DNA from: an uncultured Candidatus Saccharibacteria bacterium
GTDB lineage: Bacteria > Patescibacteriota > Dojkabacteria > B142 > OLB20
DNA length: 64,000 nucleotides
Assembly (NCBI GenBank): GCA_964461915.1
Contig: CAYWVD010000001.1
Coordinates: 235,168-299,167, forward strand
Direction: 5' to 3'
Position numbers and translations under genes: made by a program. The notes under the pieces are model-generated. The model was not told where the DNA came from, ran no database searches, and saw only the letters and a list, made by a program, of their open reading frames with translations. The first letter of the stretch is position 1, and the number at the start of each line of letters is the position of its first letter. This document shows, one piece after another, positions 35,971-43,401 of the stretch.

Positions 35971-36216
35971 TTAAGAGGAATAACTAGCCGTTAAAAATTG
36001 CTTTCCATCAAGATTATCAAATTGAAGGACTTTTGATACAGTAGCCACTGCTGAAACAGGTTCGCCAGAATCTTTAAAATAAACAGTATCGCCTTCACTG
36101 ATTCTATCCCAAGGGGCTATTCTGTTCTTATACCATCTTGATTCAATTGTTTTCTCGCCAGAGATAATCTTCGGAATAAGTTCCCACGATTTTTTCATTA
36201 TTGCGATATGATTCAT
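35971..36216 (-). CDS. Small hypothetical protein (possibly PUA/ASCH-like beta-barrel)
   Basis: 81-aa ORF at the edge of the accessory island, adjacent to the IS element. No motif recognised. Confidence 0.25.
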   Translation of the reverse strand: MNHIAIMKKSWELIPKIISGEKTIESRWYKNRIAPWDRISEGDTVYFKDSGEPVSAVATVSKVLQFDNLDGKQFLTASYSS

Positions 36217-36260
36217 TTTGCTGTTACATCTTCTAAATATTTACCTGTAAGTGACTTTTT

Positions 36261-37004
36261 ATTAGGGTCTTGTGAAGATTAGAGAGGATTTTGACTCAAC
36301 TCTTTCATCAACACTTTGTATATATTATCACTTCTGTGGTTAAAACACCACTCGGATTCTTTCAAATGTAAAATAAACTTATTTTTAGGCACTCCATTAA
36401 ATTGTGCTATTCTTCTTTTAGCATAACTCCAAAAACTTTCTATACCGTTTACATGATTTTTTCCACGAGCAAATTCATCCTTCGAATGATATATTCTGTA
36501 ATGCTTGTATCCATTTAAAACTAAACTATCATAGCTTGTCCAACCATCCGTATATATCGTACTATCCTCAAGTATTTTACCCTTAATTATCGGCATTAAC
36601 TGCTTCCTTTTACAATTCTTGACGATAACCGTATATACCTTACCATTACGCTTCAACAATCCAAATACAGGAACTTTACCTTTAGCTCCACGACCTCTTT
36701 TACCTCGTATTCTTTTAGCTCCAAAATATGATTCATCTGCTTCTATTTCACCTGATAACTTTTCTTCATTTTCTGTTAGTTGAAATATTCTTAATCTTAA
36801 TTTTTGATAGATATCTGAAATTGTTCTCCTTGAAATTCCGGTTAATTTACTGGTCTGAGTTGAGTCAAAATCCTCTGTAAAACACCTTAGAATCTGTCTA
36901 AATTTTGCCTCTGAAATCTTTGAACGGTTTGTGTACTTGTTTTTCATTGTCTTGCAAGGTATTTTACCACATTTACAACGTGCTATTCTTCACAAGACCC
37001 TAAT
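36261..37004 (-). mobile_element. IS1595-family insertion sequence (about 744 bp) with ~18-bp terminal inverted repeats; transposase CDS 36279..36947 on the minus strand
   Basis: Transposase has an N-terminal HTH/zinc region and a DDE_Tnp_IS1595-type core (TDGWTSYD ... NHVNGIESFWSYAKRR). Left end ATTAGGGTCTTGTGAAGA at 36261-36278 is a perfect reverse complement of TCTTCACAAGACCCTAAT at 36987-37004. Confidence 0.75.
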
Positions 37005-37268
37005 TATTATTTGCCTCTTTTCGAGTTTTAATTCAAAAAGTTTTGAGAAAGTTTTTTTCATTTAGTGAAGAATACAGATTATTAATAAATTTATCACTCG
37101 CTATTAGTGATGTCAAAGTTAGAAGATATTGTTCCTGACCTGTATTTCCCGCCATTTTCAATATGTTCCAACAAGACCCTCAACAATATTTACAACCATT
37201 GCCTTTCACCTTGTCAATTATATTGTCAATTAACTTGACAATTATTTTACATATCCATATAATGGATT

Positions 37269-38276
37269 ATGATAAATACTAAGTACAAACTAAGCCAAAA
37301 ACTCTTAGAAAATATCTCCTCTATTGAAAGACTCTACGGTCAATTAGAATCACAAGTAGTTCCGAAAGAATTACTTCTTAACCTAGAAGAACACAATCTT
37401 GTTAAATCATCCTTTTCTTCTAACAGTATAGAAGGTAACCCACTCTCTCAAGAAGAAGTTACTAATTTAATACTTGGAGGAAGAGTCCCGGCAAACAGAG
37501 ATGAAAAAGAAGTAAAGAACTACTTTAATATCCTAAAACAGATAGGGAAAGAATATGATACTTTGAATATAGATACCATACTTACTATCCACAAACAACT
37601 TTTGCAAGGAGTTGAGAATCAAATAGGTGGTGAGATTAGAAATAGTAAGGTTGTTGTAGGCAATCCTGCTCAGGATGGAAATATTGTTATCAAACATGAA
37701 CCACCAAAACATACCAAGGAAGAAATTACAAAACTTCTAGAGGAGTTAATAGAATGGACAAATATATCTGAGGAATTACCCATACTAAGAGCAGGAATAT
37801 ACCATCATGAGTTTGTATATATTCATCCTTTTGTAGATGGCAATGGTAGGACTTGCAGATTAACTACTACACTCCTTTTGAATAAGTTAGGATACAAGAT
37901 AAATAAGTATTTTATACTTGATGATTACTATGATATAGATAGAATACAATATTCTGACTCCTTACATTCTGCTGATAGTGGTGATAAGACAGAATGGTTA
38001 GAGTATTTTACAGATGGTGTTAAATATTCTTTACAATCTGCATTAGCTAAGATAGAGGAAGGACTAAAGAACATCTCTTTTGATATGCGACCTACAAACA
38101 GAGAGAAAGATGTTTTGGAATTAATAAAGAAGTACAAAGAGATTACTTCTTCTGATGTTGCAAAGGATCTTGATGTGTCTAGGCAACAGGCTTTTAATCT
38201 TTTAGATGGTTTAGTTTCAAAGGGTTATTTAGAAAAACAGGGTAGTACTAAAAATAGTTTTTATACCTTAAGGTAG
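37269..38276 (+). CDS. fic: Fic/DOC family protein (AMPylation-type Fic motif) with N-terminal inhibitory-helix motif and C-terminal winged-helix-like domain
   Basis: Canonical Fic motif HPFVDGNGRTCR. N-terminal SNSIEGN fits the (S/T)xxxE(G/N) inhibitory motif. Confidence 0.85.
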   Translation: MINTKYKLSQKLLENISSIERLYGQLESQVVPKELLLNLEEHNLVKSSFSSNSIEGNPLSQEEVTNLILGGRVPANRDEKEVKNYFNILKQIGKEYDTLNIDTILTIHKQLLQGVENQIGGEIRNSKVVVGNPAQDGNIVIKHEPPKHTKEEITKLLEELIEWTNISEELPILRAGIYHHEFVYIHPFVDGNGRTCRLTTTLLLNKLGYKINKYFILDDYYDIDRIQYSDSLHSADSGDKTEWLEYFTDGVKYSLQSALAKIEEGLKNISFDMRPTNREKDVLELIKKYKEITSSDVAKDLDVSRQQAFNLLDGLVSKGYLEKQGSTKNSFYTLR

Positions 38277-38325
38277 TTTTTGTTTCCAAAGGATACGATT
38301 TTGCTCTGTTATCGAAACTAAATAA

Positions 38326-39531
38326 TTTATACCAACCACAATATTTATACACGAACATCTCTTAAAAGCATATCTCTCGTCTAGAAAAAACAAACGAAAT
38401 ACCATTAATGCACTAAAATTTGAAATTAACTTAGAACAAAATCTCTCTAATCTACAAAACGAGATATTACTTCACACCTATAAACCATCTAGATCAATAT
38501 GTTTTGCTGTAACATATCCAAAAATTAGAGAAATATTTGCTGCAGATTTTAAAGACAGAATTGTACATCACTTACTAGTATCATATTTAGAACCATATTT
38601 TGAAAAAAGATTTATCTACTCATCTTTTGCCTGTAGAAAAGAAAAGGGAACTCTTTATGCAACTACGTATATACAGAAATGTTTAAGAAAAGTAACTAAA
38701 AACTCTACTAAAAAAGCCTACTATGGACAGTTTGATATTAAAAGCTTCTTTACAAGTATAGATGGGAAAATTTTAGAAGAGATCTTAATTAGTAATATAC
38801 AAAAAGGGTTTCATGGTAGTTTACAAAATGAATTAATATGGTTAACAAAAGTAATACTAGAAAACAATCCCACTCAAAACTATACAGTAAGAGGAGATAT
38901 TAATTTACTCAAACAAGTACCCTCTCATAAGTCTCTTTTTAATGTTTCTAAAAACAAAGGTCTACCGATAGGGAATTTAACATCGCAGTTTTTTGCCAAT
39001 ATATATCTAAACGAATTAGACCAGTATGTAAAAAGAGAATTAAAAATTTCCTACTATACTAGATATGTAGATGATATGGTTGTACTCTCTGATAACCTTG
39101 ATGATGTGTATATATGGAGAGAACAGATAGATACATTTTTAAAGAAAAAACTTAAACTTACTCTACACCCTAAAAAAGATAAATATGGCTCTGTATACTC
39201 TGGAATAGACTTTCTAGGGTATGTAATTAAGCCTAGATATACTCTCTCAAGAAAAAGGGTCGTAGGTAATCTAAAAAACAAACTAAAACTTTTTAATCAA
39301 GGTCTTTTACTAATATCACAAAATCAAAAACAGATTACCCTACCTCTCCATACACCCCCTTCGAAAGAGGAAATTTCTAAAATGTTAGCTATGATTAATT
39401 CTTACTATGGTCATTTTAGACATGTTAACTGTTTTAATTTAAGAAAGGATATATATGAGAATCACTTTGGTTGTTTAAAAGAATACTTAGAGCCTGTAGA
39501 ACAGTATTCATATTTTAAATTAATAAAATAA
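38326..39531 (+). CDS. Diversity-generating retroelement reverse transcriptase; the frame is open from 38326 but has no ATG/GTG/TTG before the RT domain (the ORF track shows only the 39076 ATG fragment)
   Basis: Frame-1 translation gives RT motifs DRIVHHLL, YGQFDIKSFFTSIDGKILEEIL, GLPIGNLTSQFFANIYLNELD (the DGR-specific IGxxxSQ instead of QGxxxSP), YTRYVDDMVV (YxDD), and the thumb/X-like motif INSYYGHFRH. It sits next to the Avd-like gene and the TR. Confidence 0.8.
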   Translation, partial: FIPTTIFIHEHLLKAYLSSRKNKRNTINALKFEINLEQNLSNLQNEILLHTYKPSRSICFAVTYPKIREIFAADFKDRIVHHLLVSYLEPYFEKRFIYSSFACRKEKGTLYATTYIQKCLRKVTKNSTKKAYYGQFDIKSFFTSIDGKILEEILISNIQKGFHGSLQNELIWLTKVILENNPTQNYTVRGDINLLKQVPSHKSLFNVSKNKGLPIGNLTSQFFANIYLNELDQYVKRELKISYYTRYVDDMVVLSDNLDDVYIWREQIDTFLKKKLKLTLHPKKDKYGSVYSGIDFLGYVIKPRYTLSRKRVVGNLKNKLKLFNQGLLLISQNQKQITLPLHTPPSKEEISKMLAMINSYYGHFRHVNCFNLRKDIYENHFGCLKEYLEPVEQYSYFKLIK

Positions 39532-39536
39532 TATAT

Positions 39537-39896
39537 ATGGGTAGTACAAACAATTTGCCTTTGTACAGGAGTGTGTACAAACTTTTAATATATCTTTACT
39601 CTTTAATTAGTAATTTCAAGAAAGAGTATAAATATACATTGGGTCAATCGATAACGGATTGTGCTTGGGTTGTATTAGATAGTGTAATTATTGCTAATAC
39701 CCTACCTAATTTAAAAAAGAAAGAGTATATATTAAAAGCTAGTAATCATTTTGATATGCTTAAGACTCGTATTAGGGTAGCACATGAATTAAAACTAATA
39801 GATAACAGAAGATATACTTTCATTGTTAATCAGTTTGAAGATATAGGTAAGATGTTGAATGGTTGGTATAGATGGAGTAGTAAAGCCCAAAGCTAA
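39537..39896 (+). CDS. avd: Avd-like DGR accessory protein (four-helix-bundle family)
   Basis: 119 aa, predicted helical. The C-terminal IVNQFEDIGKMLNGW matches the conserved ending of the four-helix-bundle/Avd family. Lies between the RT and the TR. Confidence 0.6.
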   Translation: MGSTNNLPLYRSVYKLLIYLYSLISNFKKEYKYTLGQSITDCAWVVLDSVIIANTLPNLKKKEYILKASNHFDMLKTRIRVAHELKLIDNRRYTFIVNQFEDIGKMLNGWYRWSSKAQS

Positions 39897-39899
39897 GTA

Positions 39900-40020
39900 C
39901 CGGGATACACAACGAACTCCGTTGTTTGTATTTGTCTTATTGTTGTTGTTGGTATTTCCATTGTTTAGGTTTACGTTCCATGCGTTTGTTGAATTGTTGG
40001 AGACCTCCGAGCTAGACCAA
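39900..40020 (-). repeat. DGR template repeat (TR), 121 bp, adenine-bearing sense strand is the minus strand
   Basis: 121-bp near-identical copy of 40310-40430. All 23 mismatches are T in the TR (plus strand), which is A on the minus strand. The TR in target frame encodes 12 AAC/AAT codons. Confidence 0.9.
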
Positions 40021-40236
40021 CGCTAACATTTTTCTACTAACTTGTTTACCACTGTAAAACTGATTAATATTTCAACTAAAAAGTTTAACTGTATTTAAAT
40101 ACCTATTAGGTGTAGTAGAACGGACTTAAATATTTGGGCTTTCTCTACTATCTATTGCCTACAGTGAGGTTAAATAGTAGACTCCATGCACTAAGATATT
40201 ACAATTCTAATTAGAAAATATCAAGTATCAAGAGAT

Positions 40237-40267
40237 TAAAAAACAACCCCTCCACTTTGTGGAGGGG
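40237..40267 (-). terminator. Rho-independent terminator downstream of the DGR target gene (minus strand)
   Basis: Perfect 9-bp stem CCCCTCCAC/GTGGAGGGG with a 3-nt loop at 40247-40267, followed on the minus strand by TTGTTTTTT. Confidence 0.5.
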
Positions 40268-40303
40268 TAAATTAAAAATTACTAAATTACTAAATTCTGG
40301 TTT

Positions 40304-41587
40304 TTAGTCCCGGGATACACAACGAACTCCGTTGTAAGTATTCGTCTTAGCGCTGTAGCTGGTACCGCCAAAGTTTAGGTAGACGCGCCATGCGTAAGCC
40401 GAATAGTAGGAGACCTCCGAGCTAGACCAATAGAGAGTATCTGTAACAAATGCTGCTGCAGATTCCTCATCTATACCCGCCTGGTTATATATCCCATCTA
40501 TATATGCTTGCATCAATTCTTTTTGAGAAGGTAAATACCAATCTGTTCTTCCTGCAAAATCTAATGTCGCACAGTAGTTTATTGCTAAACCGCAATCAGA
40601 ATCTAAACCATCATATGAACTTCTAGGTATTGAAGTAAAGTAATCACATGAAGCCATAGTAAAAATATTTGACATAGTACCTTGGTCTGCAGACCAATAT
40701 ACTCCAGTTCTCTCATCTCTCCATGCTATATCCTCTCCTACTGACATATTACTCCACTCTGACTCTTCTCCTTGATAGTCATCAGTTAATGTCCCTCCCC
40801 ATCCAAGATAGTCACCTCCAGCATAATCATCATATGTACTGTATTGCATATTTGTAAAATCTATAGGTGTTGGAGGTGTATATGTACCTGTTAGAAGAGT
40901 ACCTGAGTCAGAGTAAAACTTCTTTCCACTAATTACCTCATCTACTCTTGCATCTCCCAAAAATGACCAAGTACCTGTTAGTAATGTTCCAGAATCAGAA
41001 TAGAACTTCTTACCACTCATTACATCTGTAACTTGTGCATCACCTAAATATGATACTACTGGAGGAGTATATGTCCCTGTCTTTAATGTACCTGAATTAG
41101 AGTAAAATGTCTTACCTGCTAGTACATCACTAGTACTTGCATTTCCTCTGTATGTTACTGTAGGTACAGTAGGTAGTTTAAGAGTACCTGCTAAAAGTTC
41201 ATCATCCTCTGAGTAAAACAGTTTCCCCTCTAATACATCCTCTGCAGATGCATCACCTAAAAATTCAAACTCTTCAGGAACATATGTCCCAGTTTGTAAA
41301 TCTCTAGAATTGTTGTAAAAAGTTTTACCCTCTAATACATCACTCGTAGTAACAGTACCACTAGGAATCCAATTAGAAGCCTCTTGTACCTTTTCAACCA
41401 TCGAATCTAAATCAACATCAGAAAGTTCTTGTGTATATCCTAATTCTACTAACTTACCATATATACCCCTAACATCTTCCTCTAATTGAGATACATCAAC
41501 TTCTTTACTTGGTTTGAAAAAGAGAAACATTATTACTGCTGTAATAACGACACCTAGTAGAAATGAAAAAATATGTTTTTTATTCAT
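40304..41587 (-). CDS. DGR target (variable) protein: N-terminal signal anchor, five ~22-aa tandem repeats (DVLxGKxFYSxSGTLxTGTY), C-terminal DUF1566/C-type-lectin-like domain carrying the VR
   Basis: N-terminal TM (FSFLLGVVITAVIMFLFF). The repeats are VLEGKTFYNNSRDLQTGTYVP, VLEGKLFYSEDDELLAGTLKLPT, VLAGKTFYSNSGTLKTGTYTPP, VMSGKKFYSDSGTLLTGTWSF and VISGKKFYSDSGTLLTGTYTPP. The C-terminus TDWYLPSQKEL ... YWSSSEV ... AWRVYLNFGG ... GVRCVSRD fits the DUF1566/CLec pattern. Confidence 0.85.
   Translation of the reverse strand: MNKKHIFSFLLGVVITAVIMFLFFKPSKEVDVSQLEEDVRGIYGKLVELGYTQELSDVDLDSMVEKVQEASNWIPSGTVTTSDVLEGKTFYNNSRDLQTGTYVPEEFEFLGDASAEDVLEGKLFYSEDDELLAGTLKLPTVPTVTYRGNASTSDVLAGKTFYSNSGTLKTGTYTPPVVSYLGDAQVTDVMSGKKFYSDSGTLLTGTWSFLGDARVDEVISGKKFYSDSGTLLTGTYTPPTPIDFTNMQYSTYDDYAGGDYLGWGGTLTDDYQGEESEWSNMSVGEDIAWRDERTGVYWSADQGTMSNIFTMASCDYFTSIPRSSYDGLDSDCGLAINYCATLDFAGRTDWYLPSQKELMQAYIDGIYNQAGIDEESAAAFVTDTLYWSSSEVSYYSAYAWRVYLNFGGTSYSAKTNTYNGVRCVSRD
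40310..40430 (-). repeat. DGR variable repeat (VR), the last ~40 codons of the target gene
   Basis: See TR. The VR codons at TR-Asn positions now read Y, T, A, S, Y, S, G, F, Y, R, Y, A, Y, Y and so on. The identical 3' flank (coding sense) contains the hairpin ACAACG-GAGTT-CGTTGT. Confidence 0.9.
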
Positions 41588-41689
41588 TTAATATATATAT
41601 ATAACAAATTAATACTTCTTTAATGTTTTAATGGTATCAGAATGTAAAAAATAAAACAATACAAGGGGTGGGTCATAGGACAATACTAT

Positions 41690-42424
41690 GGGTCTAGACT
41701 AGTTTAGAGAGGATTTTTTCTAAACTCTGAAAGAAGTATATCATAAATATTTTCATTTCTCAAATTCCATCTGAACTCTGACTCTTTTAAATGAAGATGA
41801 AACATTTTATCATTTAATCCATTAAATTTTGCTAACCTTCTTTTAGTATAACTCCAAAACGATTCTATCCCATTAATGTGTGTCTTACCACGAGCAAATT
41901 CATCATCACTATGATACACACGATAATGGTCATATCCGTTAAGAATTAATCCATCATAACTTTTCCATCCGTCTGAATATATTGTAGAACCTTCTAGTAC
42001 TTTACCTTGGATTATCGGCATCAAATGCTCTCTTTTACAATTCTTAACGATGTTTACATAAACCTTACCATCCTGTTTAAGAATACCAAATACAGGAGTT
42101 TTTCCCGCTGCTCCACGTCCTCGTTTACCTCTTACACGCCTTGCTCCAAAGTATGACTCATCTACCTCAAACTCTCCTAACTCTGGTGTATGAGCAACAC
42201 TCATCTGAGCTATACGCACTCTGAAAAGATAGTAAAGTCTGTTTACTGTATTACGATTAACTCTAGAATATTTTGATGCTTTTGTTGCGGTTTCATCTTC
42301 GGCAAAATACTTTAAAATTTCCCTAAATTTTCTCTCCGAAATATGTGCTTTATTTAAATACTTATTTCTTATTGTCATAGACTTAATTATACGAGTTTTT
42401 ACTCTATTAAACTAGTCTAGACCC
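41690..42424 (-). mobile_element. Second, distinct IS1595-family insertion sequence (about 735 bp) with 17-bp terminal inverted repeats; transposase CDS 41704..42378 on the minus strand
   Basis: Transposase is a paralog of the first (roughly 60% identical by eye; same motifs SDGWKSYD, THINGIESFWSYTKRR). Left end GGGTCTAGACTAGTTTA at 41690-41706 is a perfect reverse complement of TAAACTAGTCTAGACCC at 42408-42424. Confidence 0.75.
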
Positions 42425-42708
42425 TATCTTTTCACTTGTGGAGGAACGGAACAAGTGAAAATACTGTTTGTTCCCCTCCTATAAATAATAAAAATCAAAA
42501 TTTCTTCCTTTATTTTAATCCTTCAACACCTTTTTCTCAAAAATTTTCAGAAAAATATGTCGGACAACGTTCCGGCATATACGATGTTGCGAGTGAGCAT
42601 AGCAGTATAATTTTTCTCACCGCCTAAGCGAGCGAAGCAATATGGGCGAAACGACGAGGTACGAGGAGTGTAGCCGTATATGCCGTGTTATATGATGTTT
42701 TGGCCAAT

Positions 42709-43401
42709 TCACTCTTCATTACTTTTACCCCAATTGCATTTTTGACATAGTGTTTGTAAATTTTCCAGACTTGTTTTACCTCCTTTTGAAAAAGGTTTTA
42801 TATGGTCAATGTGTAAAACAGTTCCATGATGAGTTGCTGGGCTTTTTCCACAATAGACACAGCAGAAATTATCGCGTTGCAAAACTTTGAGTCTTAATTT
42901 TAGTGGAATATCACGTTTTAATTTTGAATCTTTCGTGTTGATAGGCGTATTTGGAACCTCAGATTTTTGCTTTGTTTCTTCAACAACAGATTCCCCGGTT
43001 TTATATTCGAGAAATTTCATGCAAGCGTTTGTCCAGCCATTAAATCTTGCTTTGTATGTTGAGTATGAATATTTGGGCTTAACTAAATCCCATTCGGTTT
43101 TTGATGGCCTGTGGCCTAATTTTTTCCAAACTTTATCTAATTCCTCAAACAGCTCTTTCTCGGATATAAAACTTCGATCAGTTTCTCGTGGTTTAAGTTC
43201 TACGCCTATTGAATCTAGCGCCTTTTGCCAAGTTCCAAATACGCCGAGTACTTTTGTACCCTTACAAAGTTTTGCAACTTTATCAAATTCGTGCCGAGTG
43301 AATTTTGTATAATCAAAAAGCCCAGCAACTCTTTTAAGTTCTTTTATGACATCCTCTTTGGATATAGTGTCTATTCTTTTTCTGGAAAATTTATAACTCA
43401 T
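42709..43401 (-). CDS. HNH endonuclease-domain protein
   Basis: C-terminal HNH motif CCVYCGKSPATHHGTVLHIDHIKPFSKGGKTSLENLQTLCQKCN. Confidence 0.6.
   Translation of the reverse strand: MSYKFSRKRIDTISKEDVIKELKRVAGLFDYTKFTRHEFDKVAKLCKGTKVLGVFGTWQKALDSIGVELKPRETDRSFISEKELFEELDKVWKKLGHRPSKTEWDLVKPKYSYSTYKARFNGWTNACMKFLEYKTGESVVEETKQKSEVPNTPINTKDSKLKRDIPLKLRLKVLQRDNFCCVYCGKSPATHHGTVLHIDHIKPFSKGGKTSLENLQTLCQKCNWGKSNEE

Follow-up and report, generated by a model that had tools for sequence, protein, structure and literature searches.

A predicted structured leader 5' of the template repeat in an inverted diversity-generating retroelement from an uncultured Candidatus Saccharibacteria bacterium

How does a diversity-generating retroelement (DGR) supply its template RNA when the template repeat (TR) lies on the strand opposite to the reverse transcriptase (RT) gene? 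The question is raised by a 64,000-nt stretch of an uncultured Candidatus Saccharibacteria bacterium (contig CAYWVD010000001.1, positions 235,168 to 299,167; 31% G+C), referred to here as the window. Its DGR locus is arranged in the order IS1595-family element, Fic gene with helix-turn-helix (HTH) domains, RT, avd (accessory variability determinant), TR, a 216-bp interval (40021-40236), a terminator, the target gene with its variable repeat (VR) and a second IS1595-family element. The plus strand carries RT and avd, and the minus strand is the sense strand of TR, VR and the target gene. The locus was compared with 30 related loci from genomes and metagenomes (L numbers below), the closest being metagenome-assembled genomes labelled Dojkabacteria or Saccharibacteria and contigs of activated-sludge and digester metagenomes. 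In our estimate, with a probability of roughly 75%, this interval serves to express and scaffold the template RNA of an active DGR. Judged from these comparisons, it is not mainly a promoter region; most of it appears to be a conserved, structured leader 5' of the TR.

What identifies the locus as a DGR, and which strand is the template? The RT (38341-39531, plus strand) carries the motifs IGNLTSQ and YVDD, of the DGR-clade (I/L/V)GxxxSQ and YxDD types, and matches Pfam RVT_1 (2.5e-17). The avd gene (39537-39896, plus strand; stop codon 39894-39896) matches Pfam bAvd (8.4e-17); no solved structure was matched by Avd in a sequence search. An earlier note on this DNA had correctly assigned both genes to the plus strand and had them in the order avd then RT, the reverse of the actual order. 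The TR and the VR belong to a direct repeat of 125 nt (39896-40020 versus 40306-40430; 81% identical); the TR proper (39899-40020, minus strand) has 49 adenines when read as minus-strand RNA. In that reading, 23 of the 24 TR/VR differences fall at TR adenines, and the 24th is a T/G difference at the 3' boundary. Thus, as the note had proposed, the mutagenised adenines lie on the minus strand, and the template is minus-sense, co-oriented with the target gene and opposed to RT and avd. The target gene (40304-41587, minus strand) encodes a signal/transmembrane segment, repeats of ~30 amino acids and a C-terminal Lcl_C domain (Pfam 7e-16), with the VR (40309-40430) at the C-terminus of this protein. 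Upstream of the Lcl_C domain, at 40884-41341, direct repeats of the DNA, four to five in number, imperfect and ~83-111 nt long, encode the ~30-amino-acid repeats, with the consensus ...GKxFYSxSGTLxTGT....

The DGR is, on the evidence of natural variation, active, with ongoing adenine-specific diversification, because the metagenome contig L010 differs from the window at 30 VR sites, all of them TR adenines, and hardly elsewhere: outside the VR, only a handful of single-base differences occur across 37109-40592 (~3.5 kb). TR adenines are changed at 23/49 positions in the window VR and at 25/49 in that of L010. RT motifs, adenine-specific TR/VR differences, ongoing diversification and Avd together place the locus among the DGRs; no second DGR component or further VR was found in the window.

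What, then, is the 216-bp interval? It is the best-conserved sequence of the cassette outside the TR. Between the window and L002, identity is 0.95-0.98 over 40021-40200 and 0.99 in the TR, compared with 0.90-0.93 in avd, ~0.83 in RT and 0.5-0.9 in the target gene. A covariance model, together with covariation, defines a 175-nt structured 5' leader of the template RNA (40021-40195, minus strand). In the leader, read on that strand, a linker joins the hairpin P1 (40181-40144) to a three-way junction, where P3 (40111-40101) and P4 (40093-40050) are enclosed by P2, formed by 40120-40113 with 40039-40032; the TR begins 11 nt past P2. Between the window clade and a clade with ~60% RT identity (L018, L023), the sequences of the leader helices differ and their complementarity is kept. 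In the seed alignment of nine leaders from two subclades, 17 of 45 alifold pairs are compensatory. The model has a single match in the window (40011-40195, minus strand, 217 bits), and it finds members outside the seed, namely L006/L021 (RT 57% identical, E 8e-11) and L022 (48%, E 1.5e-4), in each case directly 5' of the TR on the TR-sense strand. When eight sequences from five subclades are aligned to the model, 94.1% of cells pair, as against 35%-45% with the partners slid by 1-3 columns; changes on both sides are seen in 37/45 pairs and 0/500 shuffles reach the observed values, counts that rest on a model-fitted alignment in which only about five lineages are independent. A search of 36000-43000 against Rfam at E <= 1 gave no match, including to the motifs RT-1 to RT-19; the RT-associated Rfam motifs are those of Weinberg et al., and RT-10 among them is the spacer of the Bordetella phage BPP-1 DGR.

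The strand on which the structure functions can be read from its wobble pairs. G.U accounts for 35 of 354 paired cells (10%), which become A.C on the plus strand, where only 84% of cells would pair rather than 94%. Because these cells would not pair on the complement, the functional strand is the TR-sense (minus) strand. The claim that the template RNA is made from the minus strand is therefore backed both by the mutagenised adenines and by the G.U cells of the conserved structure. Could the conservation instead reflect a recent horizontal exchange of an avd-TR-spacer block, or a plus-strand function such as a 3' untranslated region (UTR) or terminator for RT-avd? The gradient of window-L002 identity (RT 0.83, avd 0.92, TR plus spacer 0.96-0.99) would fit an exchange, the block is seen to move as one unit in rearranged and duplicated cassettes (L028-L031), and a plus-strand terminator-like hairpin does exist inside the TR (39909-39925). 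However, homologous leaders occur at 48%-60% RT identity with compensatory changes in most pairs, the wobble pairs favor the minus strand, and in every relative with a model match the element is TR-sense and directly 5' of the TR, whatever the orientation of the RT. This explanation is the least probable of those considered, and we give it very little weight.

Does the leader contact the far side of the TR? The linker past P1 has its complement in the stretch immediately after the TR, and the sequences used differ from clade to clade. In the window, the J1 leader strand AAAGCCCAAA (40133-40142, minus strand) forms a 10-nt Watson-Crick run with UUUGGGCUUU (39882-39891) after the TR (P 0.007). 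The corresponding leader and post-TR strands are GGCGUAAAGUUU and AAACUUUACGCC in L018, AGGGCAUAAAGUU and AACUUUAUGCCCU in L023, UUUUGUACAA and UUGUACAAAA in L006, and AAAGUGGUUAG and CUAACCACUUU in the archaeal locus L007. These runs are 10-13 nt of Watson-Crick pairs at equivalent positions, each with P <= 0.01 against shuffled flanks; they were tested sequence by sequence rather than column by column, with register shifts of 2-5 nt between clades. In the archaeal relatives L007 and L026 the duplex was found by a direct search for complementarity; model R1 detects no leader in either, even with filters off. The base-pair probability of the J1 duplex is ~1.0 in full-RNA folds of six representatives.

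Two further helices are predicted to close over the TR. The conserved segment J2, UUAAGUCCG (40121-40129, minus strand), pairs with 39902-39893 at the 3' end of the TR with a probability of 0.9-1.0. It carries a UCCG/UCG motif conserved across subclades, and both strands of the pairing are conserved in sequence, hence there is no covariation by which to test it. On the modeled fold, J2 is a candidate for the primer-side strand. P0 pairs its 5' strand AUGGAGU (40181-40187, minus strand) with 39872-39878; it does not vary within the window clade and is not found in all clades, and the fold predicted for L018 has a 6-bp counterpart with two G.U wobbles. Folds and complementarity place the 3' strands of the three closing helices within 39872-39902 on the minus strand (CGG(U)ACUUAG at 39902-39893, the J1 partner at 39891-39882 and ACUCCAU at 39878-39872), where they are antisense to the avd stop codon and the last ~8 avd codons. 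The avd stop lies 0-3 nt from the start of TR/VR homology. Apart from these strands, the 45 nt after the TR are predicted to form no stable hairpin. Secondary-structure prediction over the TR and the downstream minus-strand RNA, which the earlier note had proposed, does recover the closing helices: the RNA 40195-39860 folds at -76.8 kcal/mol (z -2.94), with 0/100 shuffles as stable. The note's expectation that the template transcript would run antisense into avd is supported. Its suggestion that the RNA structure lies within avd applies to only ~27 nt, the 3' strands of the closing helices; the bulk of the structure is the 175-nt leader on the other side of the TR.

This arrangement is best understood beside that of BPP-1, whose DGR RNA runs from the 3' end of avd through the TR into a spacer (Sp) and has been visualized by cryo-electron microscopy in a bRT-Avd-RNA particle (Handa et al., 10.1101/2023.10.23.563531). 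The BPP-1 Sp carries an Avd-binding stem-loop, the primer strand, a stop-duplex strand, a thumb ring and a bRT-binding stem-loop. It could be argued that the equivalent of Sp, including the priming site, lies 3' of the TR inside antisense avd also in the window, leaving the spacer no role beyond promoter and 5' UTR. Window and L002 are identical over the first ~55 nt of antisense avd beside the TR, the closing helices do use 39902-39872, and the scaffold elements of BPP-1 are all 3' of the TR. On the other hand, in the ~60% clade avd is flipped and the 3' flank is unrelated past ~30 nt, yet the leader is still conserved with covariation. Even among members of the window clade, antisense avd varies at many sites past ~30 nt. 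In relatives with TR and RT on the same strand, the TR is 7-60 nt from the RT start, which leaves no non-coding room for a 140-nt Sp, whereas ~90-170 nt of non-coding sequence lie 5' of the TR. An equivalent of Sp inside antisense avd is thus quite improbable.

Where does transcription of the leader and TR begin? The earlier note had predicted a promoter between the target-gene terminator and the TR, and conservation of both the terminator and the -35 and -10 hexamers in inverted relatives speaks for it. A promoter scan identifies a candidate -35 hexamer, TTGATA (40219-40224, minus strand), 17 nt from a -10 hexamer, TAATAT (40196-40201, minus strand), from which template-RNA transcription would start near 40189. 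Motif and strand agree with the note; the position (40224-40196) is 9 nt from the 40215-40187 that it gave. A 7-nt duplication (TTGATAC) creates a second copy of the -35 hexamer (40226-40231) and with it a second candidate, TTGATA-16-TAGAAT at 40231-40204. Within the window clade the -10 is invariant and TTGATA is kept throughout at the same spacing, with TTGTAT in L002/L003. The -35 hexamer marks where sequence conservation starts; just upstream of it, L001/L009 part from the window. In all three TR-inverted subclades a -10 (TAATAT, TATAAT or TGATAAT) lies 12-17 nt 5' of P1. Same-strand relatives have no -10 hexamer; their leader begins at the avd stop (L036, L055, L068, L056, L048) or the RT stop (L022). 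Since the -10 is present only in TR-inverted subclades and absent from same-strand relatives, a promoter appears where the architecture requires one. Between the target gene and the leader lies an intrinsic terminator (40237-40268, minus strand); its 10-bp stem (40268-40246), in which seven pairs are G-C, leads into a T run. In L002/L011 a C:G pair of the stem has become A:T, a compensatory change that preserves pairing, in line with the note's assignment of a terminator here; in L014 the loop differs. This terminator would insulate the leader promoter from transcription of the target gene.

Alternatively, there may be no dedicated promoter, such that TR RNA arises by read-through from the target gene and TTGATA/TAATAT is a chance occurrence in AT-rich DNA. 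Promoter-like sites are indeed not enriched: 20 were found in 5.6 kb versus 26 expected. A match alone is at chance level, so the significance of the promoter comes only from its conservation and position in relatives. Target gene, leader and TR are co-oriented, meaning that read-through would yield the right strand, and in L018 no hairpin terminator is obvious between the target and the leader. Nevertheless, a strong terminator with a compensatory stem change separates the two throughout the window clade; leader-TR units without an adjacent target gene (L001, L009, L006/L021) keep a -10 at the same distance from P1; and the -10 is missing in exactly those relatives whose leader can share a transcript with avd or RT. 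Read-through is therefore an unlikely source of the template RNA, and a dedicated minus-strand promoter in the spacer is, on these comparisons, the likely one.

Besides the chance-level promoter match and the small number of independent lineages, several observations weigh against the interval being an expression and scaffold module. First, the leader alone is not unusually stable, with non-significant z values of -0.5 and -0.1 on the two strands; it is the full RNA, closing helices included, that is exceptional. Second, no terminator is predicted on the minus strand downstream of the TR. Third, a bulge or a C.A mismatch, not exactly compensated, interrupts the J1 duplex in L011/L014, only 7 of 31 relatives from IMG/VR have a significant closing duplex of contiguous Watson-Crick pairs, and full-RNA folds of six model-positive viral loci give inconsistent long-range partners. 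For these last two reasons, the closing helix is not claimed to be general beyond the clades listed above. Fourth, putative Avd-binding stem-loops have been described just downstream of the TR in 207/278 DGRs, some of them from the candidate phyla radiation (CPR) (Handa et al., 10.1101/2023.10.23.563531), which leaves room for a 3' element overlapping avd.

Is the 5' leader a consequence of the inversion? All window-clade loci, the ~60% clade and L006/L021 share the inverted layout. Among IMG/VR relatives with a detectable TR/VR pair, the TR is opposite to the RT in only 3 of 59. These are the viral contigs L057, L059 and L095, and because they too are inverted, inversion probably arose more than once; in L057/L059 the target, avd and, after 170 nt, the TR are on one strand and the RT is on the other. 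Among the IMG/VR loci L032-L111, two layouts of the template RNA track RT similarity, with the TR abutting either RT or avd. Where the RT is >= 36% identical to that of the window, the TR-to-RT gap is mostly 7-60 nt (typically ~17) and ~90-170 nt of non-coding sequence mostly precede the TR. Relatives at 32%-34% RT identity mostly follow the BPP-1 pattern, the TR being preceded by 5-29 nt and followed by 153-217 nt; in four of them the gap before the TR is much longer. Model R2 gives weak matches that end at the TR start in seven same-strand IMG/VR relatives. On these gaps and matches, the 5' scaffold is a trait of the lineage rather than a result of inversion.

The relatives also suggest how the window layout may have arisen. 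In L022 the order is target-RT-leader-TR-avd, all on one strand. In the ~60% clade the plus strand has the RT and the minus strand has avd, TR, leader and target. The loci L017, L018, L019 and L023 of this clade have avd on the TR strand (target-leader-TR-avd) with the RT alone converging on it, and the 3' ends of RT and avd overlap by ~20 nt. Since avd is on the TR strand there, it was flipped in place between the clades. Inversion of a leader-TR-avd block in an L022-like layout would give the ~60% clade, and a flip of avd alone would give the window clade. Other rearrangements are seen among the relatives. L028-L031 contain tandem cassettes (avd-TR-leader-terminator-target), each following only the last 85 RT codons (residues 312-396) and sharing one breakpoint, equivalent to window position 39275; L030 and L031 have two TR-leader-target units each. 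They resemble satellite modules of template and target that lack an RT and are served in trans, and the template module would behave as a self-contained unit. In L008 (5001-6498), what remains of the RT (residues 8-34) runs straight into the terminator and a target gene that is intact; the apparent history is a deletion of the RT-avd-TR-leader core that left an orphan target.

How might the template RNA work? A sigma-70-type minus-strand promoter (-35 at 40224-40219, -10 at 40201-40196) would start a transcript near 40189. Its first ~175 nt would fold, as covariation shows, into P1 and the three-way junction of P2 enclosing P3 and P4. The transcript would then run through the TR (40020-39899) and at least 27 nt antisense into avd, and P0, J1 and J2 would pair with the 3' end of the TR and the next 27 nt, looping the TR, as thermodynamic folds and clade-specific complementarity predict. 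RT and Avd, made from the opposite strand, probably from a Fic-RT-avd transcript starting at a promoter at 37235, would act on this RNA in trans. Most likely, the leader stands in for the Bordetella-phage Sp: it would bind RT-Avd and hold the 3' end of the TR in position for priming. Adenine-mutagenised cDNA would replace the VR (40309-40430), the outcome seen in natural VR variation. A more specific and tentative proposal, with the odds against it, is that in this CPR/DPANN-associated DGR lineage the template RNA is a circular permutation of the BPP-1 DGR RNA: all RT/Avd-binding scaffold would be 5' of the TR, and priming would occur from a conserved leader nucleotide at ~40121, the 3' end of the J2 UCCG, set against the 3' end of the TR by the closing duplex in a retron-like topology. 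If true, this permuted topology would allow the template module to be inverted, or duplicated without the RT as in L028-L031, and served in trans by one RT.

How does the window DGR compare with known systems? In retrons, where priming is from the 2'-OH of a guanosine, the msr-msd RNA has a 5' closing strand, a structured RT-binding RNA, the template and a 3' closing strand beside the 3' end of the template. The likeness is limited to this RNA topology. The window RT belongs to the DGR clade (IGxxxSQ motif) and is accompanied by a TR/VR pair, so the locus is not a retron; its product would be mutagenised cDNA that replaces the VR rather than msDNA. The nearest retron-type RT structures score only 1.8e-08 against the window RT, whereas the best match in the Protein Data Bank is 8ub7_A (E 8e-33), which, from its entry codes, we take to be the Bordetella-phage bRT. 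Homology of the RT to bRT and an Avd-family partner are thus shared with BPP-1.

The RNAs of the window and BPP-1 can be set against each other directly. Both need RNA on the two flanks of the TR, and in both a flanking duplex adjoins a helix with the 3' end of the TR. In the window this duplex is J1 (40142-40133 with 39891-39882), with analogues in L018, L023, L006 and L007; its upstream strand is ~112 nt before the TR, compared with ~8 nt in BPP-1. In BPP-1, compensatory mutations failed to restore the avd:Sp duplex. BPP-1 has a ~10-nt avd segment before the TR and a ~140-nt Sp after it, whereas the window has a ~175-nt scaffold before and ~27 nt after; the scaffold of BPP-1 lies 3' of the TR, between TR and RT, while in the window the avd stop is 0-3 nt from the 3' end of the TR and the structure is 5'. 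The window leader also has no sequence or Rfam similarity to the BPP-1 RNA, and in the window the TR, under a predicted promoter of its own, lies on the strand opposite to RT and avd.

The opposite-strand layout, which the earlier note had called unusual compared with the Bordetella-phage paradigm, is rare among the IMG/VR relatives and has been documented since 2012. "Inverted DGRs" were described in Shewanella, Vibrio and Photobacterium as Group 4 (Schillinger et al. 2012, PMC3521204), opposite-strand RT and TR were noted by Wu et al. 2018 (PMC5758913), and MyDGR handles them as a rare case (PMC6602519). The window DGR has the Group 4 architecture, and as in that group the inverted layout means that TR and RT need separate transcripts. 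It differs in that its RT is of another lineage, from CPR bacteria, and in that avd is on the RT strand in the window and on the TR strand in the sister clade; the papers on inverted DGRs contain no analysis of RNA structure or promoters. Architecture B3 in the CPR bacteria and the DPANN archaea, TR-(avd)-RT (Wu et al. 2018), resembles the window in host group, in its Lcl_C/C-type-lectin-like target and in having the TR followed by antisense avd, tail to tail. In B3, however, the RT is co-oriented with the TR, whereas the window RT is co-oriented with avd and converges on the TR. No description of a folded leader 5' of the TR was found in the literature searched, and it has no Rfam family. A published survey of DGR RNA elements would not have seen it, because only 40 nt upstream and 100 nt downstream of the TR were covered. 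The opposite-strand layout is thus not new; the folded 5' leader closing over the TR appears to be a new element.

Several features of the neighboring genes deserve mention. The RT frame is open from 38326, and its start is probably ATA (38341), with no ATG, GTG or TTG in the first ~250 codons and no evident Shine-Dalgarno sequence at the start. RT homology always begins at an Ile codon (ATA, ATT or ATC) in the window clade, the ~60% clade and L022 (loci examined: the window, L002, L011, L013, L014, L004, L016-L018 and L022); in L021 and L026 an ordinary ATG stands a few codons further upstream. These sequences suggest conserved non-AUG initiation and low RT expression. In L016, L017, L018 and L022, the DNA ahead of the RT carries dinucleotide repeats, (CA)n and/or (GA)n, which vary in length, stop ~12-20 nt short of the start codon and are candidates for slipped-strand phase variation of RT expression. 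The gene upstream of the RT (37269-38276, plus strand) encodes a protein with profile matches to Fic plus HTH domains. An RT-Fic fusion is ruled out by two in-frame TAA codons (38269 and 38323) between the genes. A Fic/DOC protein with a C-terminal winged-helix domain is encoded directly upstream of RT, at 90%-100% identity, in several relatives (L001, L005, L009, L010 and L014), and the archaeal locus L026 has a distant Fic gene; the protein may be a DGR-associated accessory protein or a mere operon partner. A perfect consensus promoter, TTGACA-17-TATAAT (37235-37263, plus strand; 12/12 matches), lies upstream of Fic and probably drives a Fic-RT-avd transcript that converges on the TR RNA. 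The terminator-like hairpin at 39909-39925 (ACAACGAACTCCGTTGT followed by a T-rich tail), just past the avd stop, could end this transcript before the leader is crossed; its inverted repeat is also present in the VR. The 4.7-kb Fic-RT-avd-TR-target block is flanked by two IS1595-family (ISXO2-like) elements (36261-37004 and 41690-42424) in the same orientation, with ~61% amino-acid and 72% nucleotide identity and terminal inverted repeats in each. Alignment with the window breaks upstream of ~37108 in L010 and at ~40229 in L001/L009.

What are the implications of a folded leader 5' of the TR? BPP-1 is the one DGR whose RNA is structurally understood, with its scaffold 3' of the template, while the leader occurs in a lineage common in CPR bacteria, DPANN archaea and related viral contigs. 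If confirmed, the leader would mean that RT-Avd recognition tolerates, or has evolved, a permuted template RNA. It would also explain how a template module can be inverted relative to its RT and how RT-less cassettes exist. The covariance model could then be used to annotate the strand and boundaries of TRs in DGRs of uncultured organisms, and the short, testable pairings defined here would be available for reconstitution.

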